Below, in pieces: positions 3,568 to 36,340 of a DNA stretch of 64,000 bases. Source of the stretch: an uncultured Bdellovibrio sp. (lineage in GTDB: Bacteria; Bdellovibrionota; UBA1018); assembly GCA_964490895.1 (NCBI GenBank), contig CAZBEI010000116.1, positions 14,639-78,638 on the forward strand. The letters are read 5' to 3'. A program made the translations under genes and the position numbers. A model generated the notes under the pieces. That model was not told the DNA's origin and did no database searches. It saw only the letters and a program-made list of their open reading frames with translations. Position 1 is the first letter of the stretch. Every line of letters starts with the position of its first letter.

Positions 3568-3911
3568 TGTCTTTTACCTCTATATTTTATTTAACAGCCA
3601 TACAAATAAAAGGAAGCAAGTCTTGTGCCAATTTTTTAAAACCTCGCCCACAAAAAAGTTATTGCTTTAAATTGTGCAATTTCAATAAGCTATAGAGTTT
3701 GGTTTTCTCAAATGTGTTTGAGATCGTTTCTCGGATTCCATGTGAGTGACTAAAAAGTAGACAGTATTTTAGCTGAACACATAAAAAACGTTGTTTTTAG
3801 CGAAGAATTTGAGGTTTTTTGATTTATGTTATCTTTCTAATCTTGTGTCAAAATCTTGTGCAATTTTGTTTTTTAAAATTTCTCTATATTATTTTTAGGA
3901 TTTTTAGGTAA

Positions 3912-4133
3912 TTGATTGAGCGGAAAGCATCGACTTCAGGTGGAACATGCTTTCAGTGTTCTCGAACAAGACCCCAGACTGCCATCATTCCATTTGAGGA
4001 ATACGAATCTATGCTGGAAACTCTAGACATTCTTGAAACTGAGCCCGGCATTGTAAAAAAACTCAAAAAAGCACAAGAAGAAATAAAAGCCGGTGATTTT
4101 GTAAAATGGAATAAGGTTAAACGAAAGTCCTAA
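3912..4133 (+). CDS. Phd/YefM-family antitoxin-like ORF, probably 5'-degraded and orphan
   Basis: C-terminal AIIPFEEYESMLETLDILETEPGIVKKLKKAQEEIKAGDFVKW resembles the YefM/Phd core (..AVLIS.EEYESLqETLEll). The N-terminal 23 aa do not fit the family. Downstream is a strong AAGGAG (4154-4159) followed by a 3-codon stub ATG GGA TTG TAA (4171-4182), which looks like the relic of a deleted toxin gene. Confidence 0.35.
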   Translation: MIERKASTSGGTCFQCSRTRPQTAIIPFEEYESMLETLDILETEPGIVKKLKKAQEEIKAGDFVKWNKVKRKS

Positions 4134-4196
4134 CGCTGAGGCCAAATCAAAATAAGGAGTGTTCGAAATCATGGGATTGTAACTGGAGACCCAAGC

Positions 4197-5069
4197 CTAC
4201 CGCGCCCCTCCCGTACGCAAAAGATCCTTCACAACACTGTACATCACCACGGGGAGGACTTCTAAATCGTCTACCTCACGCAGGGCTCCATGCCCTTTGG
4301 AGGCCAACTCCCTACAAAGCGCGAGGGAAGCTTTTTCCTTTCCCATTTTTAAAACTACCAAGTGTGGAAACCGAGGCGCTAAATACGCAGGATCTCGACC
4401 TGCTGTGTATTTTCCATCTGTCAAAAGTACCGTGGAGGGGGGTCTGCCTTTTCCTCTTTCTAAGAGTGCGTCGACTAAAGCAAGCGAAGTTTTTAGCCCC
4501 TCCTCTAAGTGTGTGTAACCTTGGGCTGGAACATCTAAAAAGCGCTCTACCAATTGTTCAATCGAAATTTTTTCGTCAGGACGTTTCAGGAGAGCTGCTT
4601 CGTTTTCAAAAGCCACAATCCCGATGGGATCCTCTGGAAATTGCAACAACACAACAGCCAGAGCCACAGCAGTCAGCGCGAGTTTTTCTCCCGTCATCGA
4701 CAAGCTTGTATCCACCGTGAGGATCACACCTTGTTTCCGGTGGAGCTGATAGTTCATCCAAATCATTTCAGGGGACGAAAGAAGTGGGTCGTTTTCGAGG
4801 GTCTCCTCTAAATCAAGTTCGGGTTCCATGGCATTTTCTGGAAGTTCGTTCCAAGGCGAAATATTTTGGACTACGGGATGGGTGACGGACCCTAAAATAT
4901 TTTGGGCTTGCTCTAAAACAGCCTGGGCAGAAATTTTTCTAAGATTTTTCGCGATTTTTTTAAACTGTGCCTTTGCTTTAAACTCGTGATATCGCGTCGC
5001 TACATCCCACCCCGACAGAGAAGAAATGTCTAAATCTCCATCCGAAATTTCCGCAGCTTCGGGGGGCAA
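4197..5069 (-). CDS. von Willebrand factor A (VWA) domain protein, partner of the upstream MoxR-type ATPase
   Basis: MIDAS-like motif ILTVDTSLSMTGEKL (DxSxS). 290 aa. Lies immediately downstream of the AAA+ ATPase on the same strand. Confidence 0.65.
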   Translation of the reverse strand: MPPEAAEISDGDLDISSLSGWDVATRYHEFKAKAQFKKIAKNLRKISAQAVLEQAQNILGSVTHPVVQNISPWNELPENAMEPELDLEETLENDPLLSSPEMIWMNYQLHRKQGVILTVDTSLSMTGEKLALTAVALAVVLLQFPEDPIGIVAFENEAALLKRPDEKISIEQLVERFLDVPAQGYTHLEEGLKTSLALVDALLERGKGRPPSTVLLTDGKYTAGRDPAYLAPRFPHLVVLKMGKEKASLALCRELASKGHGALREVDDLEVLPVVMYSVVKDLLRTGGAR

Positions 5070-5119
5070 GAAAAAGGGCTTGTCAAAAACAAGAAGGGGA
5101 GGGACCTTATCTGCCGGAA

Positions 5120-6061
5120 CTAAAGTTTTTTTTTTAAAATCTGATCAATCCACCCTTTGATTAGAACCGCTGTTTCTTCTTGTGTTGAGAGACCGGACTC
5201 CGCATTTCTTTCCATTTCGATCCGTGTGGGAAGGCTTAAAAGAGCTGCTTGGACAAAGGCTTGTTCAAATTTTTTCCCATGCTTTAGAAACACTGCACAC
5301 AGTTGACTGATGCTGAGCGCTGCCCTGACCGAAGCACCTCTCCTCACTTGGGGATGTTGCCGTGTGAGCCGGCAAAGTTGCACTGAAGCTTGTACCAAAA
5401 GAGTTTCCATTTGCTTTTCTAAATCTGTTTTACCCAAGCGAGTTTTTAGAATTTCAATTTCCTCTCCTTCGCTCTGATAATCAATGACCACGAGTTCAAA
5501 TCGGTCTAAAATCGCTTCGCTGAGATGAGAGGTCGCAACAAATTCTTTTGGATTTTGAGTGGCGAGTACTAAAAAACCTAACTTTGCTCTTATTTCTCCG
5601 AGGCGAGGTACCATTATAACTTGCTCGTCGATGGCAGGGAGTAAAATATTCTGAACTCCCTCCGGCAATCGGTTGAGCTCATTGATAAATAAAATCCCAC
5701 CACTCTGCATGGCCTCTACCAATGGCCCTGCAAAAAAAGAGTCCTTCGAAAATCCTTTTTTAATCACACTGGGAGGATCAAACCAACCCGTCAGCTTTTG
5801 TTCTGAGTATCGACTGTCTCCGTCCACACGAAAAACTGGGACACTGAACTCGCAAGTCGCTGCTAAAGCTAAATGCGTTTTGCCCACTCCCACGGGTCCT
5901 TCCAAAAGAACATTTTTCTTAGCCTCGATGCATGCACGCAGCATTTCTAATTCTTTTTGTCTTCCTATACACTTGGCTATACCTGTGGCTATAGACTTGG
6001 CTATACCCTTGGCTTCGCTACGCAGCTTATTTTTTTCTGCTAACACTTTTTTTGCCCTCAC
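5120..6061 (-). CDS. MoxR/CbbQ-like AAA+ ATPase
   Basis: Walker A LLEGPVGVGKTHLA and Walker B-like LFINELNRLP. 313 aa, typical MoxR size. Its start overlaps the kamE stop by 4 nt (6058-6061). Confidence 0.65.
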   Translation of the reverse strand: MRAKKVLAEKNKLRSEAKGIAKSIATGIAKCIGRQKELEMLRACIEAKKNVLLEGPVGVGKTHLALAATCEFSVPVFRVDGDSRYSEQKLTGWFDPPSVIKKGFSKDSFFAGPLVEAMQSGGILFINELNRLPEGVQNILLPAIDEQVIMVPRLGEIRAKLGFLVLATQNPKEFVATSHLSEAILDRFELVVIDYQSEGEEIEILKTRLGKTDLEKQMETLLVQASVQLCRLTRQHPQVRRGASVRAALSISQLCAVFLKHGKKFEQAFVQAALLSLPTRIEMERNAESGLSTQEETAVLIKGWIDQILKKKL

Positions 6062-6831
6062 TTAGGTTTTGTCTTTATATTTTTTCTACGGATAAATTCT
6101 TCCACAATAAAACTGGCGACCTCAGATGGCTTTGTTCCTACCCCAAATCCTGCGTCAAAGCCACACTCGAGCGCCATGGGGTGAGTCACTCTAGGACCCC
6201 CTGCTACAAAAATGAGTTTGTCTCCTAAACCTGCTTTTTTTGCTTGGTCAGTAAGCTCTTTCATGTCTTTGATATGAATATTGTGCTGAGAAACCACTTT
6301 GGAAACTAAAACAGCATCTGCTTTTAACGCAGAGGCTGTTTTGAGAAGTTCCTGATTTAAAACCTGGGCCCCAAGATTTTTAGCTTCCAGCCACTCGTAC
6401 CGCTCCAGCCCATAATCTCCAGCAAAGCCTTTCATATTAAAAATCGCGTCAATACCTACCGTATGGGCATCATAGCCAGTACACGCACCTAAGACAACGA
6501 GTTTTCGTCCGATTTGAGTTTTTATCAATTCGTCTATCTCATCGCGTGAGCGTTTTTGTGCGGCGATTTTAAGAACTTTAACCTTCGTAAAGTCTAAAGA
6601 GTGTTTTGTGTTTCCATAGACCACAAAAAGAGAAAATCCATTGGCTGCTTTTTCCATCGTAGCAATTTTAACTGACTCAAACCCCATTTTGTGGACCAGT
6701 TGCGAAGCGGCTTCTCTGGCTTCGGGGGAGGGTTCTACGGGGAAAGTAAAGCAGAGCTGAACAGTACCATCCCCCATGATGTCTCCGTAAGGCTTTAATT
6801 TTTTTAAATCGGGTTTGGTTTCTGCTCTCAT
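6058..6831 (-). CDS. kamE: Lysine 5,6-aminomutase beta subunit (B12-binding, KamE)
   Basis: Cobalamin-binding signature GACTGYDAHTVGIDAIFNMKGFAGDYGLERYE with N-terminal KPYGDIMGDGTVQLCFTFP. This follows the Clostridium sticklandii KamE sequence closely over its whole length. Confidence 0.8.
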   Translation of the reverse strand: MRAETKPDLKKLKPYGDIMGDGTVQLCFTFPVEPSPEAREAASQLVHKMGFESVKIATMEKAANGFSLFVVYGNTKHSLDFTKVKVLKIAAQKRSRDEIDELIKTQIGRKLVVLGACTGYDAHTVGIDAIFNMKGFAGDYGLERYEWLEAKNLGAQVLNQELLKTASALKADAVLVSKVVSQHNIHIKDMKELTDQAKKAGLGDKLIFVAGGPRVTHPMALECGFDAGFGVGTKPSEVASFIVEEFIRRKNIKTKPK

Positions 6832-6873
6832 TAAGAATGAGAATTTCTCTCAAAATATGGAATAAATCAAATT

Positions 6874-9336
6874 TTATTCACAAAGGGCAACATCCGCACT
6901 GTTTGTGCTCCAACCATCGGAGGTCGTTATAAGCGATACATTTTCAGAGGTGTCAATCACTCTCACATTGATATAGTATTTTTTATCCAGTTTTAGATTG
7001 AGGTCTGTTTCAACGGCCGTTGTTTCTATTCCACTACTTTTCCACTTGAGAACATCAGTTAGTTTGGGTGCACTCCCAATAGAATACTCGTATCTTAAAA
7101 GATCACTAGAGCTTGTAGGTATCCATGAAATAAGCGGGCTGTGAGTGAGAGAGTTACAAGACTCGCCATCTTTGACAGACTCGACAGCAACCGGTGGATC
7201 CATGTCTAATCGTTTTGCTGGAATGTGCCCATTGATATTTACCTGCCAGTGTGTCAGTTTGCCAATGATTTTTTCCCCAAAATCATCAGAGCCATCGATC
7301 ACTTTGAGAGTCCACGTTCCAGCTGACATTTCGTTTAAAAAAGCATTTGCTAAAAAATGTGCATGATCTAGATTCACTTGAGCAATGCTGCTATTGATAT
7401 TCATTAAGATACTTTTAGTCCCACTGGGAGAGTAGAGTTCTATGCCCAAAGTTCCAGCATCATCATGAGTAACGTCGGCTACAATTTCAATAGTCTCAAT
7501 TTCTAGGTTGTGTCGAACTTTTATAGAAGACATTACTCCATCGGCATCTTTGTCTGGGATTTCTAAAGAAAGCTCTCCGCTCCCATAAATCCACCTCTCA
7601 CTATCTTGCAGGTCAACGCGGTTTAAATCTTTTGTCTGAACATAGGATCCAAGTGGATAGGCATAATTTTTTGCCATAGCCACTGCTGCATCTGTATCGA
7701 TGAGTCCAAATCCGTACTGATTATGGAAATAAACCTCTGCTGCGTTTTTTGTCCACCCTTCTTGATAAGTGTAACTTTCTAAATCGAGTCCATCTGGGTG
7801 CCCTGTTGCTCCGCTGTCAGGCTGTATGCGCCTTGCCGTTTTTGCAAGGATGTATTTCATGTCTCTCCAACTCATGTTCGGATTGACACTCAACGCAAGT
7901 GCAGCAACACCCGCGGTTATCGGAGCAGCGGAGGACGTCCCATTCATCCTGCTCGTATAATTACAATTCGGGTTGAGGAGAGACTCGCCCCTTTCGAAGG
8001 GGGTAGTAGCCGTACTCTTTGACAAACCACAGTCACACCCACTAAGATCCGTTGTGACAATAGCAGGATCTCCATTATATCCATGCCCAGCTGGAGCACT
8101 AATCCACACATTTGATCCAGGAGAGGAGTATTGTGTAATTTTACCACTCGAATCGATTGCAGCAGCTGAAATCATTTGAGGGTAGGAGTTGATGGGGTCA
8201 AAATTTGAATTCCCATAATATGCAATCCCATTTAAGAACGGGTTACAAGCTCCAAGATTCTTTCTAAAGTCATTTCCAGCAGCCTTTACATAAATGGCTC
8301 CTTTTCCAGAGCGCAAGTGACTGACCCCAAATTCGAGCTGTTTTAAGTAGAAGGGATCCATATCCGAAACAATGCATTGGGGAGTGCCATAGCTATAATT
8401 AAAAACATCAAAGTCACCCTCTGCCTGATTTTGCAGCATAGAAGTATCCTGTATGCGTCCATCATCTAGCGATAAAAAGAGGAATCCTGCAATGTGAGCA
8501 CCTGGAGCAACGCCTCTACTTCCTATTCCATTCCATCCCGTTGCTGCAATAATTCCAGATACAGCAGTGCCGTGAAAACTACCTCCAGAACAGCTTTTGG
8601 GGGTGGGATCACCCATCCAAGGAGAAGGAAGGTTGTAGTTTTTTGAGACTCCAGGAATGATATTGTCTGCTAAATCTTCATGTTTAATTTCAATACCCGT
8701 GTCAGAAACAGCAATTTTAATACCCGCTCCACTGATTCCTTCAGCGATTGTTTTGTCCATATGAAGGTCCACCCCAGGTACTCCTGAAATATTCGAAAAA
8801 GCTTTTTGACCTATATTTTTGAGATGCCATGCTTCTGTTTTTAAGGGGTCTCCTAAAACATGAATTGAAAAGGGGCCCAATATTTCTGCGATGCCATTTT
8901 TTGTCGCAAAAACTGCGATTCTTTCAAATAAGCCTGGATTATTGGGTATCCCCTCTATTTTTCCGGTCTCGAGATCAAACCTCGCCCAAGGGGGGAGGTT
9001 GTTTGAAAAAAACAAAAGCTTGCTATCTAACAACTGTGGCGCAAACGAATATAAAAAATCTTGTTTCCCGATAAGTATAGGTTTTCCAGAAATCAATACC
9101 CGGGAAGGTATTGAAGCTGGGGGAGGAGGGGGAGGAGGAGTGGAAGCAGGAATAGGCTCTAGGTTTGGCCCAGAAGATGGAGTATTCGCAGGCTTTGGCA
9201 AAGAAACAGCGGGTATCCGATCGGGCGTATTCTCTGGAGTTTGAATTTCAGTTTTTTTTGACACTGTCAGCGTTGAGGGTTGAAAACAAGCTGATGTAAA
9301 AAACATGACTGAAATAACTAATGTGACTGTTTTCAT
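6874..9336 (-). CDS. Secreted subtilisin-like serine peptidase (S8 family), 820 aa, with a Pro-rich N-terminal linker
   Basis: Catalytic triad motifs VSDTGIEIKHEDL (Asp), SFHGTAVSGIIAA (His) and GTSSAAPITAGVAAL (Ser). Signal peptide MKTVTLVISVMFFTSA; run PPPPPPPASIPS. Confidence 0.8.
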   Translation of the reverse strand: MKTVTLVISVMFFTSACFQPSTLTVSKKTEIQTPENTPDRIPAVSLPKPANTPSSGPNLEPIPASTPPPPPPPASIPSRVLISGKPILIGKQDFLYSFAPQLLDSKLLFFSNNLPPWARFDLETGKIEGIPNNPGLFERIAVFATKNGIAEILGPFSIHVLGDPLKTEAWHLKNIGQKAFSNISGVPGVDLHMDKTIAEGISGAGIKIAVSDTGIEIKHEDLADNIIPGVSKNYNLPSPWMGDPTPKSCSGGSFHGTAVSGIIAATGWNGIGSRGVAPGAHIAGFLFLSLDDGRIQDTSMLQNQAEGDFDVFNYSYGTPQCIVSDMDPFYLKQLEFGVSHLRSGKGAIYVKAAGNDFRKNLGACNPFLNGIAYYGNSNFDPINSYPQMISAAAIDSSGKITQYSSPGSNVWISAPAGHGYNGDPAIVTTDLSGCDCGLSKSTATTPFERGESLLNPNCNYTSRMNGTSSAAPITAGVAALALSVNPNMSWRDMKYILAKTARRIQPDSGATGHPDGLDLESYTYQEGWTKNAAEVYFHNQYGFGLIDTDAAVAMAKNYAYPLGSYVQTKDLNRVDLQDSERWIYGSGELSLEIPDKDADGVMSSIKVRHNLEIETIEIVADVTHDDAGTLGIELYSPSGTKSILMNINSSIAQVNLDHAHFLANAFLNEMSAGTWTLKVIDGSDDFGEKIIGKLTHWQVNINGHIPAKRLDMDPPVAVESVKDGESCNSLTHSPLISWIPTSSSDLLRYEYSIGSAPKLTDVLKWKSSGIETTAVETDLNLKLDKKYYINVRVIDTSENVSLITTSDGWSTNSADVALCE

Positions 9337-10080
9337 TTAATTAATTTCCGATTGATGATCAATGATTTCTATTTGTGCATTCGTAATTTTTTTATCTGTG
9401 CTTAAACCAGCTACTATAGAGATGAGGTCTCTTTCGTGGGGAGGGCTGAAAAAAACTACACTTATCCTCTCATTAATGTGCTTGATGCTCAATTGATGGC
9501 GCTCTGCAAGATCTTCAAGGTCGGTCCCCGGTCTATATCCGGCAATGATTGTGCCTGTGACAATTCCAAACCTGTGATTCACTGGATCTTCGACAACTAG
9601 TCGGGATTTGTTTTGTGATATTTTCAATTCTGAGAGATTCTTTATGTTCATTTTGTCTGTTTTGTAGAAAACGACACTACCCATGCGATAGACAATGGGA
9701 CCCAAATTTCTGGAATAGTGGCCCTCATCAATAAAGTCCATATCATTTCTGATGACATAGTTTGTTTTATTAATTTTCAACAACGGAAGCCCAGCAATTT
9801 TTCTTTGTTGTTCTTTTCTGTGTTTTATAAATTCTTTAAATTGAATAGCTGTTAATTTTTTATTACCATCTATCCCCTCGAAAATGTCTGGCTGTACCCG
9901 ATAGGGACTTTGTGCTTTATTTTGTACTCTATTGAAAGACGTACTGGGTGAGTACGCAGGGGCGCGATCTACCTTTTGCTCCTGTCTCAGGTCGGGCCCT
10001 TGGTTAAACAATGAAAAGACAAAACAACCAACGGCAACCACTGTAATAGAAAGAAAAAATAAAGTATTGTGTTTTTTCAT
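9337..10080 (-). CDS. Secreted hypothetical protein, directly abutting the S8 peptidase gene (0-nt gap)
   Basis: 247-aa ORF with signal/anchor (LFFLSITVVAVGCFVF). Its stop is immediately adjacent to the peptidase start codon. Confidence 0.4.
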   Translation of the reverse strand: MKKHNTLFFLSITVVAVGCFVFSLFNQGPDLRQEQKVDRAPAYSPSTSFNRVQNKAQSPYRVQPDIFEGIDGNKKLTAIQFKEFIKHRKEQQRKIAGLPLLKINKTNYVIRNDMDFIDEGHYSRNLGPIVYRMGSVVFYKTDKMNIKNLSELKISQNKSRLVVEDPVNHRFGIVTGTIIAGYRPGTDLEDLAERHQLSIKHINERISVVFFSPPHERDLISIVAGLSTDKKITNAQIEIIDHQSEIN

Positions 10081-10159
10081 AAATCCCCCCTCCCAAGAGC
10101 CCTAGATTAGAATAGTAACACGTTGCACTATACCCTCTCAACGTATTTTTTGTTTAAAA

Positions 10160-11782
10160 TTAGTTTAATAAATTACACGCCGTTTCCACTGTGGCAGGCG
10201 TGTCCGTTTTGACTGTGTTAAAAAATCTCAAAAAAGGATTGAGGTAATCAGGATCTCGCTCTATCACTCCGTCATGGCCTTTGCCGCCTGTTTCTGTACG
10301 ACTGACTGTTGCAAATGCTTTTTCTTCGATGGCCTTAAAAAGTCCTTTTTGATGGACGCCCTCTAAATGAGCTGCTGTTTCCTTCAGAACTTTTTGAGCC
10401 CAGTTCTCAATCATCCCACCTGGCTTAAAGCTGATCTCAGAGCCTAAGTCTCTTGCCCCATTAAAGATATATTTTGCATTTTTAATGCTCATCCATCGAT
10501 CTTGTAAAAGCGGGGTGTGCATGGCTTCGGTGGCCATTCCTAAAAGTTGAATGGTTTGACCAGTCAACACACCTACAAAATTAAACATTGCATCCATCAA
10601 ATGGCTATAAAAAATATCTCCACATTTATAACGAGTGGGAGGCATAAATTTTATGGGTGCGTTGGGAAAAATATCTCGCGTCATTTGAGCTCTTGCAATC
10701 TCAAGCAAAAAAACGTTCGGATGTTCTGGGTTCATCTCTTGCGCGTGCCCAAGTCCCATCAAATCCTCTGTCATGTGTGCATTTTTTGCAAAACATTCGT
10801 TGATAAATTGAGAAGCCAAAACTTGGTGGCCATTTTCGATCGCATCTGCCGTGGTGAGGTAATTGTCCTCCCCTGTGTGAATCACAATTTGAGAGTGCGC
10901 AATTACTAAACGCGAAAAATGTTGATCAATGAGAGTCCTTTTCATATTGATGTCCCGGAAAAGAATTCCATACATCGCGTCGTTTAAGAGGAAATCTAGT
11001 TTTTCTAGCCCCCCCAAGACCGCGATTTCTGGCATGCAAAGCCCGGAACAGTAGTTGGTGAGTCGAATGTAGCGTCCCAGTTTTAAGCTTTCTTCGTCCA
11101 AAGCCTTGCGCATGATCTTAAAGTTTTCTTGAGTGGCATATGTTCCACCAAAGCCTTCTGTCGTAGCTCCATGGGGAACATAATCTAAAAGAGATTGCGC
11201 CGTACTGCGGATCACAGCAACGGCATCTGCCCCAGCTTGAGCAGCAGCTTGAGCTTGAATGACATCATCATAAATATTTCCTGTCGCCACAATCACATAG
11301 AGCAAAGGGCCTTCTTTGCGATGAACCTGAAAGCTATCGGTTGCCTTTTTTCGTAGCGCATCTCGCTCTTCTCTTTTCTCAGTCAGAGTCCTTTTTGCGT
11401 CAAGACAAAGAGCTTTTGCTTTCTCTATGATTTTGGATTCTAGGGCAAAAGGAATTTTGACAAGGTTTATTTTCCCAGAACAAACTTGTGCTGCCAGTTC
11501 TGGGGCAGGCATTTTATGTCGAATCATCCCATTTACAAATGAGCGCAGAACTCCTTTGTTTAAGCAGCCTTCTTTGTTTAAGAGTTCCACCACTTTGTTG
11601 GCCATAGGAAACCACTGTCTTCCTTGTAGGGTCGCACCATGGACTCCTAAAAGTCTCAGAGTCGCACGTTCTATGGCAACCGTCGTGTGCGTTTGGATGA
11701 GTTTGTCAATGGGAACAGCAATTTGTTTTGCGAGCTCTCGACACCGATCAATGATCTTTAGATCTAACGGGAGGTGAGACAT
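10160..11782 (-). CDS. kamD: Lysine 5,6-aminomutase alpha subunit (PLP-binding, KamD)
   Basis: Long collinear similarity to KamD, e.g. PLLYVIVATGNIYDDVIQAQAAAQAGADAVAVIRSTAQSLLDYVPHGATTEGFGGTYATQENFKIMRKAL and ...NYCSGLCMPEIAVLGG...LNDAMYGILFRDINMKRT... Confidence 0.85.
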   Translation of the reverse strand: MSHLPLDLKIIDRCRELAKQIAVPIDKLIQTHTTVAIERATLRLLGVHGATLQGRQWFPMANKVVELLNKEGCLNKGVLRSFVNGMIRHKMPAPELAAQVCSGKINLVKIPFALESKIIEKAKALCLDAKRTLTEKREERDALRKKATDSFQVHRKEGPLLYVIVATGNIYDDVIQAQAAAQAGADAVAVIRSTAQSLLDYVPHGATTEGFGGTYATQENFKIMRKALDEESLKLGRYIRLTNYCSGLCMPEIAVLGGLEKLDFLLNDAMYGILFRDINMKRTLIDQHFSRLVIAHSQIVIHTGEDNYLTTADAIENGHQVLASQFINECFAKNAHMTEDLMGLGHAQEMNPEHPNVFLLEIARAQMTRDIFPNAPIKFMPPTRYKCGDIFYSHLMDAMFNFVGVLTGQTIQLLGMATEAMHTPLLQDRWMSIKNAKYIFNGARDLGSEISFKPGGMIENWAQKVLKETAAHLEGVHQKGLFKAIEEKAFATVSRTETGGKGHDGVIERDPDYLNPFLRFFNTVKTDTPATVETACNLLN

Positions 11783-11791
11783 GTTTAAAAC

Positions 11792-12835
11792 TTACGAATA
11801 AGCTTCCATAAAAATACGGTTTAACTCTGGGCTTTCTCTCAAAATATTAAGGGCCGTTTCTGCATGAGATTCGCAATAGCCGTTTCCAATTCGCAGTTCA
11901 ATATCAGCCCCAATGCCCTCTGCCCCTAGAGCTGCCCTTTGGAAACTTGTAGACATACTAAAAAAATAAACAATCCCATGTGTTCGGCAAGTGAGAATTG
12001 AGGACATTTCGGTATCTGGAATATTGGCAACATTGATGACAAGATCAGCCATCCGCCCTTTTGTCGAATCCCAAACTTTTTCCATTACAGCGACTCCATT
12101 TCTTGCGTCAGCATGGATCACTTCGTCCACAAAAGAAAGAGTGGAGAGGCGATCGATTGCTTCTTTGCTATAGTCCACTGCAATTGTTTTTACCCCTGGC
12201 TGTTTTTTAGCTTGATAGAGGCAAAGCATTCCTGACTTTCCACCACCGCCAATCACTAAAACAGTATTTCCTGCCTGCACGAGCTTTTCGGTTTGAGCGG
12301 GAGCTCCTGCTACATCCAAAACTGCAAGGGCGACTGTTTCTGGAATATCGTCGGGCAATTTTGAAAAAACTCCTGATGCAAACAATATCGCATGCCCCTC
12401 AATATCGACTCGGTCCGTTTTAGGGTGGATTTCTTTTATCTTCTTTATAGAAAGTGGCGTGAGTGAAAGAGAAACCAGAGATGCAATTCGATCTCCAACT
12501 TTGATTGGTTTTTGCTTTACTGGAAAAGTGGGTCCAATTTGCGCAACTGTTCCAATAAACATCCCCCCAGAACCCGTGACGGGATTGTGGAGTTTTCCTC
12601 GTTTATGGACAAGTTGTAAGAGAAACGTTTCAATTTTCTTTATGTTCCCTTCGCAACTTTCAGAAATTTGAAGAAAGCTCACAGAGTCAATATTGAGACT
12701 TTCAACCTCTACTAACAGTTCGTCTTCAGCAATCGGCAAACTTGGATCTAAGGTATCTGCCTGTTGAGGAAGTGTGCCTCTAGGCTCTAAAACTCTCCCT
12801 GTTCCCAAGGGATCAGGACTCCTAAATGAACTCAT
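11792..12835 (-). CDS. kdd: L-erythro-3,5-diaminohexanoate dehydrogenase-like (Kdd) NAD(P)-binding dehydrogenase
   Basis: 347 aa with Rossmann GxGxxG (VLVIGGGGKSGMLCL). Located 9 nt upstream of kamD on the same strand, with its start abutting the stop of the upstream dehydrogenase gene. Confidence 0.55.
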   Translation of the reverse strand: MSSFRSPDPLGTGRVLEPRGTLPQQADTLDPSLPIAEDELLVEVESLNIDSVSFLQISESCEGNIKKIETFLLQLVHKRGKLHNPVTGSGGMFIGTVAQIGPTFPVKQKPIKVGDRIASLVSLSLTPLSIKKIKEIHPKTDRVDIEGHAILFASGVFSKLPDDIPETVALAVLDVAGAPAQTEKLVQAGNTVLVIGGGGKSGMLCLYQAKKQPGVKTIAVDYSKEAIDRLSTLSFVDEVIHADARNGVAVMEKVWDSTKGRMADLVINVANIPDTEMSSILTCRTHGIVYFFSMSTSFQRAALGAEGIGADIELRIGNGYCESHAETALNILRESPELNRIFMEAYS

Positions 12836-13891
12836 TTACAATGACCTCGCTTGATTTAATTTTTCTTCAACAATTTCATCAGCCACTTGGTGCGAAGTGG
12901 TTTCTTCTCTCTTAGATCGCTCTAGAATTTCTGCCATGGTGGAGTAAATTTTTTCGACGTGGGCAAAGGCACGCTCTTTATTGTAACCCCCAGGGAACAT
13001 TTTTTCGTGATAAATATTGATCAGCCCTCCAGCATTGATCACATAGTCTGGAGCATACAATATATTTCTTCGTAACAACTCATTTCCGATCTCTGATGTG
13101 GAAAGTTGATTGTTGGCAGCTCCTGCTATGATTTTTGCACGAATCCGAGGCAAGGTGGTTTCGTTCAGAGTTGCTCCTAAAGCAGAGGGAGAAAAGAGAT
13201 CACATTGAACGTCATAAATCGCATCCGGTCTTGTGATCTCGATCGAATATTTCCGTGTCACACGGTCTATTTTGTCCGGATCAATATCACAGCCAATTAT
13301 TTTTGCACCGTCACTCATGAGATGCTCGATGAGGAAATAGGAAACACTTCCTAGGCCCTGGAGTGCAATGGTCATATTTCGGAGAGTTTGACTTCTAAAA
13401 GCATGCTTAGCACAAGCGCGCATGCCATGAAAAACACCCCACGCTGTGGCAGACGAAGGATCGCCACTTGAACCAGGTTCTCCTTCGATCCCTAAAATGT
13501 GCTTTGTCTTTCGCTTGATGACTTTGAGATCCTCAGAGTCTGTACCCACATCTTTTGCAGTAATATAGTGCCCGCCCAGTCGGTCGACAAATTCTGCAAA
13601 GCGCTCAAACTTTTTTTCCGTTTTTTCGGTCTTAGGGTCCCCCATGATGACCGCTTTTCCACCCCCCCAGTTCAAACCTGAGATAGCAGCCTTGTAGGTC
13701 ATACCTTTAGAAAGCCTCAAAACATCGACCAAGGCCTCAGCTTCAGTTGCATAACTCCACATTCGACAGCCCCCAACGGCTGGGCCAAGCACTGTAGAAT
13801 GGAGAGCAATAATGGCTTTTAATCCTACACGAGAATCACAACAATATACGATTTGCTCAAAGTTTTCGTCTTTAATCCATTCAAATACCAT
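12836..13891 (-). CDS. Leucine/phenylalanine dehydrogenase-family amino-acid dehydrogenase
   Basis: MVFEWIKDENFEQIVYCCD...LGPAVGGCRMW...GLNWGGGKAV...YITAKDVGT...APDYVINAGG matches Glu/Leu/Phe/Val dehydrogenases closely. The listed ORF starts at TTG 13912, but the family N-terminus aligns to ATG at 13891. Confidence 0.75.
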   Translation of the reverse strand: MVFEWIKDENFEQIVYCCDSRVGLKAIIALHSTVLGPAVGGCRMWSYATEAEALVDVLRLSKGMTYKAAISGLNWGGGKAVIMGDPKTEKTEKKFERFAEFVDRLGGHYITAKDVGTDSEDLKVIKRKTKHILGIEGEPGSSGDPSSATAWGVFHGMRACAKHAFRSQTLRNMTIALQGLGSVSYFLIEHLMSDGAKIIGCDIDPDKIDRVTRKYSIEITRPDAIYDVQCDLFSPSALGATLNETTLPRIRAKIIAGAANNQLSTSEIGNELLRRNILYAPDYVINAGGLINIYHEKMFPGGYNKERAFAHVEKIYSTMAEILERSKREETTSHQVADEIVEEKLNQARSL

Positions 13892-14051
13892 ATGACTTCC
13901 CCATTGTGTCAAGGGTCTAACCTATCAAGGGTGTTGGAGGAAAATCAAGTGGGAATTAGGGGCTCCCCTCCATACCTTGCAGATAAAATATTTTAAAAAT
14001 AAAAAAAGCCAACTAATGGTACACCTTATAGAATAAAGGAGACTGTAAAAA

Positions 14052-14240
14052 ATGAAAGACGACTATAAGCTCAAGGGGCCTACGGCAAAAATGCAAATAG
14101 AAGTAGAAAAGGAAGTGCAAGAAATTTTACTTTCTATGGAAAAATATTCAAAATTTTCAGTGTCTGAGTTGACCAACACAGCACTCAAAAGATTTATCTC
14201 TGCTCACAAAGATTTTTTGATGCCGGTGGCAGCAAAATAG
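14052..14240 (+). CDS. Small hypothetical ORF (62 aa) with good RBS (AAGGAG 14038-14043)
   Basis: An ATG preceded by aaggagactgtaaaaa. The product is hydrophilic and low in GC with no recognisable motif. It ends at a TAG that is immediately followed in frame by a foreign-looking gene fragment. Confidence 0.3.
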   Translation: MKDDYKLKGPTAKMQIEVEKEVQEILLSMEKYSKFSVSELTNTALKRFISAHKDFLMPVAAK

Positions 14241-14404
14241 GATCGCAATGCCATCCGCGAGGCATGCCTACAAATCAAGAACTATGATGGCGCCCTCGGT
14301 AAATGGTCCTTTGATAAGAACGGTGACACCACTCTTAAAACAATGAGTGGTCTGATTGTCAAAGATGGCAAATTCGAGTTCTTGACTCAGCTGGGCTTGG
14401 AGTA
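14241..14404 (+). pseudogene. 3' fragment (about 54 codons) of a LivJ/LivK-type branched-chain amino-acid ABC transporter substrate-binding protein
   Basis: Translation DRNAIREACLQIKNYDGALGKWSFDKNGDTTLKTMSGLIVKDGKFEFLTQLGLE* is the typical C-terminus of Leu/Ile/Val-binding proteins. GC is visibly higher than in the flanks. There is no start codon and no upstream body. Confidence 0.5.
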
Positions 14405-14421
14405 GAGAGACTGAATATTAC

Positions 14422-15372
14422 TCACTCGACAACGACTTTTTTGAAACTATAGGTCACTTTTATAAACTCCACATTGCTTTGAATCACTTGCTCCAAAAGA
14501 TTGAAAGAAGCAGCCTCTTTTCTCTTATTATCTCTCAAGTGCTCAAGCTCAGACCTTCTTGCTTCTGGTATATTGTCGTTCTTTTCTAATTCTAAATTTA
14601 ACTCTGCCAACTCTTTTGTTCTAGAATTTTCACACAAAAAAACACAAAGAAGATGAGTGTGAGACGTGCCTGGTTCGATAATTGCTTGAAAATTCGAAGT
14701 CCAATTTCTATCCGGTGCACTATATTGTTCTGCAATATGTTTTATAAATTTTTGTGGAGAACCTTTTATTTCGTCACTCACACTCTTATCTAAATCAAAG
14801 TAGAGATCAGCCTTTGTGCCTTTTAAGGTTTCGTAAGAAGCAAACAAGTCTTTGCCCTTTAATCCACCAAATTCAATTTCAATGCCAATCAACTCTTCTC
14901 TTGCTCTGTCATAAAGGGGGAGTTCTACTTTCGTATGCCCAGTCTCTTTAATTTCAGTAAAACCATCCTCGTTTGAATTTTGAGAATAAAAAGCGTTCCT
15001 CTTAATACTATTATTTTTAGAATTGCTCTCTGCCTTATTGGCCATTTTCTTATTGGCCATTTTTTCGACTTCATCTTGCTCTTTGTCCATAGACGCAAAA
15101 ACATACCTCGTGTTCACAGTATTTTCGCTCTTCTGAACTGCGGTTTTTGGGGTATCGCTTTTTGGATTGACTGGCTCAGATGGCGCCTTATTTACATATC
15201 CATATTTGGATAAACTTGTCGTAATGGGACTGCAACGCGACAAAACAAGGAGGGTCAAGATCAATCCTAAAAAAACAAAAATCGTACTTTCTAATAGTCT
15301 GTGATGAGGCTTATTTTCATTCTTATTCAAATTTATTTTCATCAACATAAAACACCTCTGGCCATTGGCCAC
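14422..15372 (-). CDS. Membrane-anchored hypothetical protein (start probably internal, near MKINLNK)
   Basis: Hydrophobic segment TIFVFLGLILTLLVL. Contains a 15-bp x2 tandem repeat (15034-15063) that encodes MANKKMANK. Confidence 0.4.
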   Translation of the reverse strand: MANGQRCFMLMKINLNKNENKPHHRLLESTIFVFLGLILTLLVLSRCSPITTSLSKYGYVNKAPSEPVNPKSDTPKTAVQKSENTVNTRYVFASMDKEQDEVEKMANKKMANKAESNSKNNSIKRNAFYSQNSNEDGFTEIKETGHTKVELPLYDRAREELIGIEIEFGGLKGKDLFASYETLKGTKADLYFDLDKSVSDEIKGSPQKFIKHIAEQYSAPDRNWTSNFQAIIEPGTSHTHLLCVFLCENSRTKELAELNLELEKNDNIPEARRSELEHLRDNKRKEAASFNLLEQVIQSNVEFIKVTYSFKKVVVE

Positions 15373-18404: not shown

Positions 18405-20384
18405 CTAAGTAGCAAGATCCATGAGTTCAGAAATATCCATCACCTTGACCTTGCCTTGCATCTCTTTAGACTTCACTCCATCGGTGAGCATTGTCATGCA
18501 AAAAGGACAGCTCGAAGCTACGACCCCGGCATTGGTTTCTAGCGCTTGCTCAGTGCGCGCAATATTGACTCGCTTGCCGGTTTTTTCTTCCATAAACATG
18601 CGGCCCCCGCCTGCCCCACAGCACATGCTTTGATCGTGATTGCTTTTCATTTCTACGACGCGCGCAGAAGGGATTGAAGAAATCACAGAGCGTGGCTCTT
18701 CGTAGATCCCATTCCAGCGGCCCAAGTAACAGCTGTCATGAAAAGTCACAGTCTCATCTACCCCCTTTGTGGGCTTTAACCTTCCGTCCCGAACAAGCTC
18801 TGCAATATATTGCGAATGATGCACAACTTCGTAGTTGCCTCCAAAGTCTTTGTACTCGTTTTTAATCGTATTAAAACAGTGCGGGCAAGAAGTTAAAATC
18901 TTTTTAGGTTTATAGCGATTGAGCGTTTCAATATTGGCTTTCGCTAAAGTTTGATAAAGATACTCGTTCCCAATCCTGCGCGCTGGATCTCCTGTGCATT
19001 TTTCTTCCATCCCTAGAATAGCAAACTTTACCTCTGCTTTTTTTAATAAACTCACCATAGAACGAATGACTTTTTTATTTCTATCGTCATACGATCCGGC
19101 ACATCCCACCCATAAAAGCACATCGACATTGGAATCCTCTGCCATCGTTTTTACAGACAACCCTGATGCCCAGTTAGCTCGATCCGACTGACTGAAAGCC
19201 CACGGAGAGCTATTGGTTTCCATATTTTTAAATACTGTTTGCACTTCGGGTGGAAATCGCGACTCCATCATGACCAAATTGCGGCGAATATCGTAAATTT
19301 TGTCAACTTGCTCGATAAAAACAGGGCACGCAATTTCGCACGCTCGACACGACGTACATGCCCAGATCACATCTTCTGTGACGTTAGAATCTATGATATG
19401 AGAAACCTGATCGCCTTCATGTTTTAAAATCTTATCTTTATTTAAAAAGAGATTATTTTTTAAGTCTAAAATAAGCATTTTAGGCGAAAGCGGTTTGCCT
19501 GTATTCCAGGCAGGACAAAGGTCTTGGCAGCGGCCGCACTCCGTACACGAATAATAATCCAAGGCATCTTTCCACGACAGGTCTGTCACTTTAGCAGCTC
19601 CGTACTGTGTCACTTTTTCGTCTTCGAAGTTGATGGGAGTCATCCCTTTTTCGCGCTGTAGCTTTTTTAAAAAAGTATTAGGCCCCGCAGCCACAATGTG
19701 AAGGTGTTTTGAACTCGGAATATAAACCGAAAATCCGAGCACAATCAAAAGATGCACCCATTTAAAAAAAATACCGAATCCATAATTTGTTGAGGCATCC
19801 AACTGAAACCCACTTAAGCAACTTGCCACAAGACTGGAAACAGGCATTGCATTTTGAAACCATGGAGATTTGCCTAAAAAAGTAAATCCATTCATCAATA
19901 AAATCGACACCATCAAAAGCCCAATAAGGCATAAAATAATGCCAGCGTCTTTGGACTTGCCAAGCCCCTCTGGACGTAGAACATACCTCCGATAACAGGC
20001 AAAAAGCACAGCCAATAAAACTGCTAAAGTAAAAATATCTTGGAAAAAAACTAAAACCGAATATGGGATCTGTCCTATAAATTCAAAATCTGCAGCGCTG
20101 TAAATCGTAGTAGACATTTGTTCGAGTGTGCCCACTGTAATAATGATAAATCCCCAAAAGATAATCGCATGCATGATGCCTGCGCCCCGTTTTTGGAGAA
20201 CTGCTTTTTGCCCCAGGACATTGACAAAGGTAGTCCATATGCGTGCTTTGATTTGATTGAGAGTGGGTCCTTTGCCGCGATGGGACATCATCATTTTGTA
20301 CAATAAATAAAAACGATAGCTAGACAATCCAAAGGCAGAAAATGCAATAGGGAGAAATAGGAAAGTTTGCCAGGTCAAGGTCAT
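18405..20384 (-). CDS. Membrane-bound Fe-S oxidoreductase with two 4Fe-4S ferredoxin motifs and CCG domains (EtfD-like ETF:quinone oxidoreductase candidate)
   Basis: N-terminal multi-TM region; CTECGRCQDLCPA and CTSCRACEIACPV cluster motifs; C-terminal CCGAGGG motifs. Immediately downstream of etfB-etfA on the same strand. Confidence 0.6.
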   Translation of the reverse strand: MTLTWQTFLFLPIAFSAFGLSSYRFYLLYKMMMSHRGKGPTLNQIKARIWTTFVNVLGQKAVLQKRGAGIMHAIIFWGFIIITVGTLEQMSTTIYSAADFEFIGQIPYSVLVFFQDIFTLAVLLAVLFACYRRYVLRPEGLGKSKDAGIILCLIGLLMVSILLMNGFTFLGKSPWFQNAMPVSSLVASCLSGFQLDASTNYGFGIFFKWVHLLIVLGFSVYIPSSKHLHIVAAGPNTFLKKLQREKGMTPINFEDEKVTQYGAAKVTDLSWKDALDYYSCTECGRCQDLCPAWNTGKPLSPKMLILDLKNNLFLNKDKILKHEGDQVSHIIDSNVTEDVIWACTSCRACEIACPVFIEQVDKIYDIRRNLVMMESRFPPEVQTVFKNMETNSSPWAFSQSDRANWASGLSVKTMAEDSNVDVLLWVGCAGSYDDRNKKVIRSMVSLLKKAEVKFAILGMEEKCTGDPARRIGNEYLYQTLAKANIETLNRYKPKKILTSCPHCFNTIKNEYKDFGGNYEVVHHSQYIAELVRDGRLKPTKGVDETVTFHDSCYLGRWNGIYEEPRSVISSIPSARVVEMKSNHDQSMCCGAGGGRMFMEEKTGKRVNIARTEQALETNAGVVASSCPFCMTMLTDGVKSKEMQGKVKVMDISELMDLAT

Positions 20385-20395
20385 TGAAACTCGCT

Positions 20396-21364
20396 CTAGT
20401 GTTCTTTAATTTTTTTAAACTCTTCTTTTAATAGTGGCACAAGAGCAAATAAATCGCCAACAATTCCATAATCTGCTACTTGAAAAATCGGAGCCTCTGC
20501 GTCTATATTGATTGCCACTATGCATTTGGATGTTCTCATTCCTGCCAAATGCTGAATCGCCCCACTGATACCGCAAGCAATATAAAGAGCTGGAGAAACG
20601 ACTTTTCCAGTCTGGCCCACTTGATCTCGATGTGGACGATAGCCAGAGTCTACGGCTGCGCGAGAAGCACCCACTGCAGCCCCTAAAACATCCGCCAATT
20701 CTTCTATGATTTTAAAATTATCCGCGCTCTTAAGAGATCTCCCACCAGACACTACAATGGCCGCTTCCGTGACATCCGGCCTAGCACTTGTACCCTTGAC
20801 GACTTCTAACACTTTTGTTTTGAGGCCAGAAAAATCCACGGCCACAGAGACAACTTCTGCGGACTTCGAAGAGTCTACCTTTGACACTCCAATGGCGTTT
20901 GGCCTGATGCTGGCCACTCTCGGGCCACCACCTAAAAACTCGACCTCTACTGTGGCTTTTCCTGCATAAATGGGGCGCCTCACTTTGAGCGTTGATCCTT
21001 CGATTTGAACTTGCGTGCAATCACTGGCCAGACCCACTCCGAGCTTCGCAGCCAGCTTGGGCATAAAATCTCGACCTGTGGGAGAGTGACTCGCTAAAAT
21101 AATTTCTGGAGAGACCTGTTTTACAACGGCCAAAATAGCGTGTGTGTAGGCTTCTGCAGTATAATATTTTAAAGCAGGTGCTTCGATCAAATGCACTTTC
21201 GAGGCTCCATAGGGACCTAATTCTTTGGAGAGCTGAGAAACGCCCTCTCCTAAAAGCACGACATGGGTTTCGTTTCCTGATTTCGAAGCTGCACCCAAAA
21301 GCTCGAATGTTGATTTTTTAAGCCGTCCCTCTCTTTGTTCTGCAATGACTAAGATTTTTCCCAT
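20396..21364 (-). CDS. etfA: Electron transfer flavoprotein alpha subunit
   Basis: MGKILVIAEQREG... N-terminus and C-terminal FAD-binding PALYIACGISGAIQHLAGM. Confidence 0.85.
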   Translation of the reverse strand: MGKILVIAEQREGRLKKSTFELLGAASKSGNETHVVLLGEGVSQLSKELGPYGASKVHLIEAPALKYYTAEAYTHAILAVVKQVSPEIILASHSPTGRDFMPKLAAKLGVGLASDCTQVQIEGSTLKVRRPIYAGKATVEVEFLGGGPRVASIRPNAIGVSKVDSSKSAEVVSVAVDFSGLKTKVLEVVKGTSARPDVTEAAIVVSGGRSLKSADNFKIIEELADVLGAAVGASRAAVDSGYRPHRDQVGQTGKVVSPALYIACGISGAIQHLAGMRTSKCIVAINIDAEAPIFQVADYGIVGDLFALVPLLKEEFKKIKEH

Positions 21365-21367
21365 GAG

Positions 21368-22141
21368 TTACACCACCTTTGCTTCTTCGTGTAAAAGTCT
21401 GACCAGCTCTTTGGCTTGTAATGCAGGATCTCCTGCAATTTTCTTTCCTGCTTGTTTAGGAGGCGGCAGCTGAAAGTTTTTGTACCGAATCTTTTGGTCA
21501 TTTTCTCCTACACCTAACTCAGCTGCCTTATAGGCTTTCACTTCTTTTTTCTTAGCCTTCATAATATTGGGTAAAGTAGCGTAGCGAGGTTCATTCAAAC
21601 CTTTCTGAGCTGCAATCACTGCGGGCACGCTCACCTGCACCATCTCGTATGCACCACCCTCGATCTCGCGTTTGCACTTCAAAGAATCTGCACTATACTC
21701 CACATTCAAAATAACCGTGACATAGGGAAACCCTAAATACTCCGCTAAAAGTTGGCTCACCTGTGCTGCTCCATCATCAATGGCTTCTTTGCCAGTAAAA
21801 ACAAGATCCACTTTGGCTTCTTTTTGAAGTGCTGCTGCCAATGCTTTTGCAGCACTGTTATTATCTGCAGTTTCTAGCAGCTCAATATGAATTCCACTAT
21901 CTGCTCCCATTGCAAGGGCTGTCCTCAAAGAATCCACCACTCGCGCAGGCCCTGCACTTAAAACCGTCACTGTGCTTCCTGTATTTTTTTCTTTGAGCCG
22001 CAAAGCCTCTTCGATTGCAAATTCGTCATAGGGAGAAATAATCCATTTGACACCTGCTGTGTCAATCCCACTATTGTCAGAATTGAGTTTTATTTTTGTC
22101 TCCGTGTCTGGAACTTGTTTGACACATACATAGATGTTCAT
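21368..22141 (-). CDS. etfB: Electron transfer flavoprotein beta subunit
   Basis: MNIYVCVKQVPDTE... N-terminus typical of EtfB. 257 aa. Lies 3 nt upstream of etfA. Confidence 0.85.
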   Translation of the reverse strand: MNIYVCVKQVPDTETKIKLNSDNSGIDTAGVKWIISPYDEFAIEEALRLKEKNTGSTVTVLSAGPARVVDSLRTALAMGADSGIHIELLETADNNSAAKALAAALQKEAKVDLVFTGKEAIDDGAAQVSQLLAEYLGFPYVTVILNVEYSADSLKCKREIEGGAYEMVQVSVPAVIAAQKGLNEPRYATLPNIMKAKKKEVKAYKAAELGVGENDQKIRYKNFQLPPPKQAGKKIAGDPALQAKELVRLLHEEAKVV

Positions 22142-32813: not shown

Positions 32814-33394
32814 TTATTCTCTCTTATAAATTCGGCAACCGTGTTGATGCGCTGAAGATTTTTTTCGTCCATTTCAGAATCTATCACGCCACCTAATTTC
32901 TCAAAATTAAGTAAGCACAACGCCTTAATAGCTGTAAAGGTTTCAACTTTTTGTACGCACCTTTGATAAAACTCAAGACCTTTATTTTTATATTGTGGGT
33001 ACGCCGTTAAAACTTCAGCAATCTTGCCTAGCTTTTTGCCTGCTTCAATCAAAAGAGGGTTAAAGTGATGCAACTCTTGTGCTGAAAAGTTCTTTAGCTC
33101 TTCTATAGCAGGTAGTCCAAGCAATGTTTTTTCTATCCGTTCGACAAAATCAAACTCACTGAGCGTAGAATCTATGTCTGCAGTCGTTCTTAAATCAGTT
33201 GTTTTACTTCCAGTTAAGCCTGTTTTTTCAAAAACGAGTGGAGATTTTTCAAGTTTATTATTTTTTTTCAAAATCTGATAGCGAAGAAGGTCGTTTATGC
33301 TCCCCTCGTGAGAGGGTCGAAAGAACAGTAAACCAAGTGAGCAAATAAGGGCTACTGATACATAAATATGGGATTTCAAAAACCTATTAACCAC
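32810..33394 (-). CDS. Secreted hypothetical protein
   Basis: Signal peptide VSVALICSLGLLFF. 4-nt overlap with the downstream gene start. Confidence 0.35.
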   Translation of the reverse strand: MVNRFLKSHIYVSVALICSLGLLFFRPSHEGSINDLLRYQILKKNNKLEKSPLVFEKTGLTGSKTTDLRTTADIDSTLSEFDFVERIEKTLLGLPAIEELKNFSAQELHHFNPLLIEAGKKLGKIAEVLTAYPQYKNKGLEFYQRCVQKVETFTAIKALCLLNFEKLGGVIDSEMDEKNLQRINTVAEFIRENK

Positions 33395-33464
33395 AAAAAA
33401 AATAACCTCATTTCATACTGCGAATTAAATACGCCAAAATACTGCTAACACTTGCTACAAAAGG

Positions 33465-34986: not shown

Positions 34987-35044
34987 TTCAAAGATCTGGA
35001 ACGGATAACACGCAGCATCAATTTAATCAAGAATAAAGTGTGGT

Positions 35045-36208: not shown

Positions 36209-36267
36209 ACTCCATAATTGTCTGCCTTTTATGGACAGTAGTCAATATTTATCTGACCCCATAAAAT

Positions 36268-36340
36268 GAGCCATGATGGATTCGAACCATCGACCCTCAC
36301 ATTAAAAGTGTGATGCTCTACCGACTGAGCTAATGGCTCA
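36268..36340 (-). tRNA. tRNA-Lys (anticodon UUU)
   Basis: Reverse complement folds as a cloverleaf: GAGCCAT TA GCTC AGTCGGTA GAGC A TCACA CTTTTAA TGTGA GGGTC GATGG TTCGAAT CCATC ATGGCTC A. It has a 7-bp acceptor stem, a 5-bp anticodon stem, anticodon TTT and a TTCGAAT T-loop. CCA is not encoded. Confidence 0.85.

Follow-up and report, generated by a model that had tools for sequence, protein, structure and literature searches.

Why should the two subunit genes of an obligate alpha2-beta2 enzyme stand apart, with a protease gene between them? The question is raised by a 64,000-nucleotide stretch of DNA from an uncultured Bdellovibrio sp. (GenBank assembly GCA_964490895.1, contig CAZBEI010000116.1), referred to here as the window, in which kamD and kamE – which code for lysine 5,6-aminomutase's alpha and beta subunits – lie 3,328 nt apart on the minus strand, with genes for a 247-aa protein (hyp247) and an 820-aa S8 peptidase between them. 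It can be asked whether this four-gene order is ancestral or derived, what the two intervening genes encode, how the genes downstream of them would be expressed, and whether the protease has any part in lysine catabolism.

Aeromonas sobria protease ASP is a kexin-like subtilase that lacks a propeptide, and its maturation needs ORF2, a protein encoded by the neighbouring gene (PMC5638518). The C-terminal tail of ORF2 occupies the ASP active site, and the ASP/ORF2 system has been described in five genera: Aeromonas, Vibrio, Shewanella, and Chromobacterium, along with Pseudoalteromonas (PMC5638518).

Here, we compare the kam locus of the window with 81 other kam loci, and its two intervening genes with their relatives elsewhere. 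We conclude, with a probability of roughly 0.8, that a two-gene cassette was inserted at the kamD/kamE junction of a conserved operon and is tolerated there, probably as a neutral relocation. A self-contained cassette would have landed exactly at this junction of a conserved Bdellovibrionota operon, bringing with it a gene for a putatively membrane-anchored ORF2-type chaperone and, behind it, the translationally coupled gene of an ASP/kexin-like S8 protease, putatively without a propeptide. All components of the insert come from known families and the arrangement is present on one contig; a gene pair typical of the phylum would have been relocated, and no designed functional link with the kam genes is required.

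kamD and kamE are contiguous in all comparison loci

Both kam genes are confidently assigned. The kamD product (10160-11782, minus strand) scores 750.3 bits against NCBIfam NF052384, for which the cutoff is 600, and the kamE product (6058-6831, minus strand) scores 335.9 bits against NF052385, for which it is 280. Because both subunits exceed curated equivalog cutoffs, mis-assignment of the kam genes is ruled out, and the names given to them in a preliminary description of the window stand.

A scan with KamD of one genome per GTDB species gave 80 loci, the best of which (about 52) are from Bdellovibrionota (Bacteriovoracaceae, Bdellovibrionales, and Oligoflexia) with 57-84% identity, which places the window in this phylum. 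When the loci were searched by tblastn with the operon proteins of the window, the usual order was (ELFV dehydrogenase)-Kdd-KamD-KamE-AAA+ ATPase-VWA, present in about 45-50 loci, and KamD and KamE were side by side in each locus holding both, those of Firmicutes and Bacteroidota included. In the 79 other kamD loci, the median gap from the kamD stop to the kamE start is close to 0 and the largest is 111 nt, and 4-nt ATGA overlaps or short spacers bearing a Shine-Dalgarno sequence are common at the kamD-kamE junctions of relatives. In a collection of 5.8 billion sequences, no KamD protein is closer than two with 79% and 78% identity, and on the contigs of these two the kamD-kamE gaps are 7 and 11 nt, with the ATPase and VWA genes next. 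No S8 or hyp247 homologue was found near the kam genes in any comparison kam locus.

The split is thus present in 1 of 82 loci, the window alone. Because kamD and kamE are contiguous in the 81 comparison loci, including those of the closest relatives, the split is, on comparative grounds, a derived state of one lineage and not an ancestral one. The possibility that the four-gene order is ancestral is ruled out by the same 81 loci, that order being found nowhere else. The comparison with related genomes bears out the preliminary description, according to which the two genes are normally adjacent and translationally coupled and have been separated here; the tight translational coupling of kamD and kamE is lost in the window. 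Adjacency of the subunit genes, though usual in this enzyme family, does not strictly define it.

The intervening genes encode an ASP-type protease and a predicted ORF2-type chaperone

The coordinates of the open reading frames (ORFs), the shared minus strand, and the 0-nt gap between the two intervening genes are exactly as had been claimed. The hyp247 gene lies at 9337-10080 and the S8 gene at 6874-9336, and the TAA stop codon of hyp247 directly precedes the ATG of the S8 gene.

The S8 product matches Peptidase_S8 (PF00082, 140 bits) and P_proprotein, the P-domain (PF01483, 52.6 bits), and its best matches in PDB are to Aeromonas sobria ASP (3hjr and 3wqb_A, E = 7e-76, residues 163-684), with furin and kexin next. 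Aligned with its homologues, it has invariant catalytic residues (D212, H255, and S468) and an invariant oxyanion residue (N355). It is laid out as a lipobox-like signal, a Pro-rich linker, a domain of about 80 aa, the catalytic domain, and the P-domain, beyond which some 115 aa more reach to the C-terminus; the N-terminus, MKTVTLVISVMFFTSAC, is lipobox-like by inspection only. Residues 1-196 have no match among Pfam families even at E <= 1, the alignment to mature ASP starts at residue 163, and close homologues bear an immunoglobulin-like He_PIG domain in their N-terminal region. By its sequence, then, this is an ASP-type kexin-like protease, putatively one without a propeptide.

The adjoining gene had been described as a secreted hypothetical gene; it is a separate gene next to that of the protease, as stated, and its product is identifiable. 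The sole Pfam domain of hyp247 is PF18492 (ORF_2_N), at 32.7 bits against a gathering score of 29.2. A word-indexed protein search with hyp247 gave no match other than hyp247 itself, and when 1.8 billion representative proteins were scanned in full with HMMER, 31 other relatives came up, at no more than 38% identity; hyp247 evolves fast, and its family alignment has no conserved stretch. In a family alignment of 25 members, including two neighbours of S8 homologues, PF18492 is matched by 24 and Fervidolysin_NPro-like by 10. The best PDB matches of the family profile are 3wqb_B (E = 0.0035) and 2mk4_A, both of them ORF2, which is reached only by the family profile and by structure search, a single-sequence phmmer search of PDB with hyp247 giving nothing meaningful.

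An AlphaFold2 model of hyp247, with a predicted local distance difference test (pLDDT) score of 82, has an N-terminal helix (residues 4-25), from which a disordered linker leads to a small beta domain, and residues 161-240 make up a domain that is predicted to be beta-alpha-beta-beta-alpha-beta and prodomain-like. The top Foldseek match of the model is 3wqb_B, ORF2 with ASP (E = 1.8e-4, template modelling score 0.78, target-normalised), further matches being to furin/PC1/3 and subtilisin prodomains; the sequence identity of hyp247 and ORF2 is about 15%. The PF18492, profile, and Foldseek matches to ORF2 together identify hyp247 as a predicted external chaperone of the ORF2 type, which amounts to a prodomain detached from the S8 protease encoded downstream, and a fast-evolving 'hypothetical' protein so gains a functional assignment. 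Since hyp247 would belong to the S8 protease, the insert can be read as one functional two-gene cassette and not as two unrelated genes. By analogy with Aeromonas ASP/ORF2, the chaperone would serve in the periplasm as a detached prodomain that folds the protease and temporarily inhibits it, and the protease would afterwards be exported or lipid-anchored.

The pair shares several features with Aeromonas sobria ASP/ORF2 (3HJR, 3WQB, and 2MK4): a kexin-like S8 catalytic domain with a P-domain, and an adjoining small gene whose product has ORF_2_N and a prodomain-like fold, the two genes forming one unit. ASP has no covalently attached I9 propeptide, and the S8 protease of the window may lack one as well. 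It differs in gene order, the chaperone gene being upstream here (0-nt gap) and downstream in Aeromonas, and in its host, a member of the Bdellovibrionota and so outside the five genera in which the system was described (PMC5638518). The chaperone, of 247 aa, differs from ORF2 by its N-terminal anchor or signal, by an additional beta domain, and by a disordered linker that is long; the S8 protease differs from ASP by its lipobox-like signal and Pro-rich linker and by additional domains at both termini. Residues 161-240 of hyp247 are also predicted to share the alpha/beta prodomain fold of the intramolecular I9-type prodomains of subtilisin and furin (1SCJ_B, 9FID, and 2Z56_B), but in hyp247 the domain is on a separate polypeptide, so that no autoprocessing site is needed.

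The pairing also occurs away from the kam genes. At the nearest full-length S8 homologue (49% identity), in an unrelated neighbourhood, a PF18492 gene overlaps the start by 4 nt, and in three further contexts an S8 homologue is paired with an upstream gene. The upstream genes in these contexts are detected by the family hidden Markov model, including two that were left out of its building, and the chaperone-S8 pairing is seen in loci L081, L083, L087, and L088. Scanned with the S8 protein of the window alone, metagenomes gave no loci; scanned with the S8 alignment, they gave 80 with ASP-like S8 genes, of which 56 are informative. A hyp247-family gene is beside the S8 gene in 49 of the 56 – upstream in 27 and downstream, the Aeromonas order, in 22 – and 7 are without one; none of the 80 metagenome loci has a kam-operon gene within 5 kb of the ASP-like S8 gene. 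The hyp247-S8 pair is a conserved two-gene unit outside the kam context, and the ASP/ORF2 external-chaperone system is extended to the Bdellovibrionota, with both gene orders present.

Edges of the insertion and the kamD 3' end

The 3.3-kb insertion of the preliminary description is real, and needs correction in its size, which is nearer 3.38 kb, and in its extent, one edge lying inside the 3' end of the present kamD ORF. The inserted DNA runs from about 10217 to about 6836. Its left edge is at the ancestral kamD stop codon (TAA, 10218-10220, minus strand), which is now out of frame, and is followed by a 137-nt cassette leader (10081-10217, minus strand) in which sequence inspection, a promoter scan, and folding point to a hairpin, promoter-like hexamers, and a Shine-Dalgarno sequence. 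The right edge is within the AT-rich spacer of 42 nt between the S8 gene and kamE (6832-6873, minus strand); the spacer between kamD and hyp247, likewise read from the sequence, is 79 nt. The kamE start, MRAETKPDLKKLKPYGD, agrees with those of relatives such as MKETKVNLKHLKPYGD.

KamD proteins of Bdellovibrionota are mostly 521-522 aa and end in NPF-F(E/D)(I/L/V)(L/F) before the stop, and KamD of the window ends in NPF-LRFFNTVKTDTPATVETACNLLN. In DNA the kamD end reads CC-TTTTTT-GAGATTTTTTAAC in the window and CCA-TTTTTT-GAGATATTTTAAC in locus L003, and it is at this T-run (10230-10235, minus strand) that a 1-nt deletion relative to the relatives shifts the kamD frame. Adding one T at 10230-10235 restores NPFFEIF and a stop at 10220-10218, identical to the ends of L003 and L015, and turns the KamD of 540 aa into one of 521 aa. 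In the frameshifted KamD the last four conserved residues (the FEIF/FELL tail) are replaced, and 19 residues come from the inserted DNA; the 1-nt deletion would have let kamD be read past its ancestral stop into the insert. The frameshift may be a real mutation or else a homopolymer sequencing or assembly error.

The rest of the operon appears sound. Aligned to the solved structures 8t0v_C and 1xrs_B, KamE keeps the B12 motif DAHTVG (cobalamin-binding DxHxxG) and the Lys-containing NMKG motif, both identical in the window and 8t0v_C. The identity of KamE to its relatives is 70-80%, the same as that of KamD, and the ATPase gene and the VWA gene both have their full length, with no internal stops or truncations. 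The sequence gives no apparent sign of operon decay except in the kamD tail.

Expression of the split operon

No terminator-like sites were called at either junction of the insert, and the folding energies of the two are no better than those of shuffled sequence. In the cassette leader, a GC-rich hairpin of 7 bp (10175-10203) precedes a partly U-rich stretch. The leader also has two promoter-like hexamer pairs that overlap (10112-10156) and, ahead of hyp247, a strong ribosome-binding site with the Shine-Dalgarno sequence GGGAGGGGGG (about 10085-10094). Upstream of kamE there is only a weak, distant Shine-Dalgarno-like GAGAG, with no nearby promoter-like site and no terminator.

From this layout, kamE is most likely expressed from transcripts that run through the S8 gene, and the S8 gene is likely to be co-transcribed with the kamE, ATPase, and VWA genes. 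Co-transcription of the cassette with kamD is plausible, and a second promoter, in the leader, may drive both the cassette and kamE. Co-transcription with the kam genes is proposed because convincing terminators are missing, and this is its sole basis. Given a sense insertion without a convincing terminator, we infer that kamE and the ATPase and VWA genes would still be transcribed, either by read-through or from the leader promoter.

Origin of the insert

The G+C content (GC), the GC at third codon positions, and the codon-usage likelihood of both inserted genes are within 1.3 standard deviations of the 51 long ORFs of the window, and the GC profile has no step at the insert. The comparison of GC and codon usage that had been proposed earlier thus gives a host-like insert with no foreign signature. 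The S8 homologues with a named source, almost all of them from Bdellovibrionota, likewise favour a host-like origin. The insert holds the two cassette genes only, and no transposase or integrase was found in it; the nearest tRNA is at 36267-36339, with none near the insert, and a search with Rfam around the locus turned up neither a riboswitch nor any other RNA. A repeat search found no target-site duplications or terminal repeats at the insert boundaries. An island mediated by an integrase or an insertion sequence is rejected, since integrase and transposase genes, a tRNA, boundary repeats, and deviant composition are all missing.

Exactly the same 15 nt (minus strand ATATTTTGAGAGAAA) stand at 6844-6858 and again, in direct orientation, at 11833-11847, with no match beyond them. 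One copy, in the S8-kamE spacer, precedes the kamE start by 13-27 nt, and the other, in the kdd 3' end, precedes the kamD start by 51-65 nt. Of 300 mononucleotide shuffles, 5 produced an exact 15-mer repeat. As an origin of the insert, a move from elsewhere in the genome, or transfer from a relative of similar composition, would fit best.

Two other loci have extra DNA in this operon. In L049 (Oligoflexia; 12384-15128) two genes on the same strand are inserted between kamE and the AAA+ ATPase gene, one for a 430-aa type-II NADH-dehydrogenase-like and one for a 481-aa class-II fumarase-like protein, as judged by sequence motifs. Because this insertion is independent, the intergenic points of the operon have taken foreign genes more than once. 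In L015, from a metagenome-assembled genome of Bacteriovoracaceae, about 780 nt are extra between kdd and kamD (3854-4631), with short ORFs only.

Alternative explanations

An operon for an obligate alpha2-beta2 enzyme would, if the insertion is tolerated as proposed, accommodate 3.4 kb of sense-oriented DNA between its subunit genes without visible decay. Several observations weigh against this reading. The mechanism of insertion is not visible, there being no transposase, integrase, tRNA, or flanking repeats. The arrangement is present in one genome only, its proteins are singletons on a single 83-kb NCBI contig, and the timing cannot be narrowed. The leader hairpin could act as a weak terminator, promoter-like matches are no commoner than in shuffled sequence across the region, and a homopolymer or assembly error is a possible source of the 1-nt kamD frameshift. 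As to the chaperone, hyp247 ends in ...HQSEIN and not, as ORF2 does, with a basic end (Gln-Pro-Lys), so that the tail-in-active-site mechanism is here only a possible one; many members of the hyp247 family end in K or R.

The alternative that survives best is adaptive recruitment, in which a protease cutting at Lys/Arg would free lysine peptides from prey and co-regulated KamDE and Kdd would catabolise the lysine. The shared orientation and the lack of clear terminators make co-expression possible, the downstream genes are intact, the host is from a predatory phylum, and ASP-type enzymes have been assayed on Lys-Lys substrates (PMC5638518). However, the arrangement occurs in 1 of 82 kam loci and none of the 80 cassette loci is near kam genes, so that there is no recurrent association, and the cassette seems to supply a leader, a Shine-Dalgarno sequence, and a promoter-like site of its own. 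We therefore regard recruitment as unlikely. If co-regulation were true, extracellular proteolysis would be linked to amino-acid catabolism in a predatory lineage. The corresponding picture of a surface-tethered protease wired into the lysine operon – prey digestion and lysine breakdown being co-induced, and kamE and the ATPase and VWA genes depending partly on the protease promoter – is similarly doubtful.

Somewhat less probable again is a disruptive insertion, with polar effects that uncouple or silence kamE and the ATPase and VWA genes in a lineage that is losing the lysine pathway. The loss of kamD-kamE coupling would accord with it, as would the 42-nt leader and weak, distant Shine-Dalgarno-like motif with which kamE is left in comparison with its relatives, and the kamD frameshift that replaces the conserved F-E/D-I/L-L/F tail. 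Yet KamE, the ATPase, and the VWA protein are full length with conserved motifs and no internal stops, and KamE has diverged no more than KamD. A chimeric contig with unrelated DNA between kamD and kamE is very improbable, for although the locus is on one 83-kb contig whose proteins are all singletons in the protein collection, and has a homopolymer-length difference at the left junction, an artefact would require that the contig be wrongly joined twice and that operon order and strand nonetheless be restored, precisely at an intergenic point, and the insert matches its flanks in composition and codon usage and has no assembler-misleading repeats at its junctions.

Other genes of the operon and the window

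The operon was taken as the minus-strand run in the six-frame ORF list from 4197 to 13912. Its first gene (12836-13912, minus strand; Pfam ELFV_dehydrog_N and ELFV_dehydrog) encodes an ELFV-family amino-acid dehydrogenase and is found upstream of kdd in many Bdellovibrionota loci; the top NCBIfam match of its product is to the tryptophan dehydrogenase ScyB, at 361 bits, far under the cutoff of 600. Next is kdd (11792-12835, minus strand), for L-erythro-3,5-diaminohexanoate dehydrogenase (NCBIfam NF052381, 246.8 bits, cutoff 200). Beyond kamE, a conserved operon member encodes a MoxR/GvpN-like AAA+ ATPase (5120-6061, minus strand; Pfam AAA_5) and has a 4-nt overlap with the kamE stop, and the last gene (4197-5069, minus strand), assigned by Pfam VWA_2 and synteny, encodes a VWA-domain protein, the conserved partner of the ATPase.

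The window operon resembles the canonical kamDE operons of Clostridium sticklandii, Porphyromonas gingivalis, and Fusobacterium (PMC3958899) in that both subunit genes are intact, on the same strand, and near kdd, and in that the motifs for B12 and pyridoxal 5'-phosphate are conserved. It differs from them in the 3,328 nt between the subunit genes, which elsewhere overlap or are at most about 111 nt apart, in the 19-residue insert-encoded tail of KamD, and, as a Bdellovibrionota-type operon, in the addition of the MoxR-like ATPase and the VWA protein. Of the other proteins of the window operon, Kdd alone has a homologue that was found in the comparison loci from Firmicutes and Bacteroidota, at a distance of 3-5 kb. 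Downstream of kamE, the ATPase and VWA genes are present in about 45 genomes of Bdellovibrionota (L004-L054, e.g. L004 at 12461-14316) and in no Firmicutes or Bacteroidota locus.

Some other MoxR-VWA pairs are enzyme activases. KamDE undergoes suicide inactivation, and an ATP-dependent auxiliary protein, E2, is known (PMC3958899). By analogy, the AAA+ ATPase/VWA pair is a candidate activase or reactivase of KamDE. The 5' end of the ATPase ORF contains a 12-nt tandem repeat (5965-6012, three overlapping 24-nt copies), which encodes A-K-x-I units (AKGIAKSIATGIAKCIG) in a stretch that does not align with relatives.

Elsewhere in the window, five consecutive minus-strand ORFs at 31518-36339 have a GC of 0.35-0.38 (z -1.1 to -2.2) and end beside the only tRNA of the window (36267-36339); this low-GC stretch may be an island. 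Genes for an Fe-S/CCG-domain oxidoreductase and for both subunits, alpha and beta, of an electron-transfer flavoprotein (ETF) lie at 18405-22141, upstream of the kam operon by a few kb, and similar oxidoreductase and ETF genes lie a few kb downstream of the kam operon in L086 (14942-17569). These genes may be a conserved neighbourhood that takes up electrons from the oxidation of amino acids or acyl-CoA.

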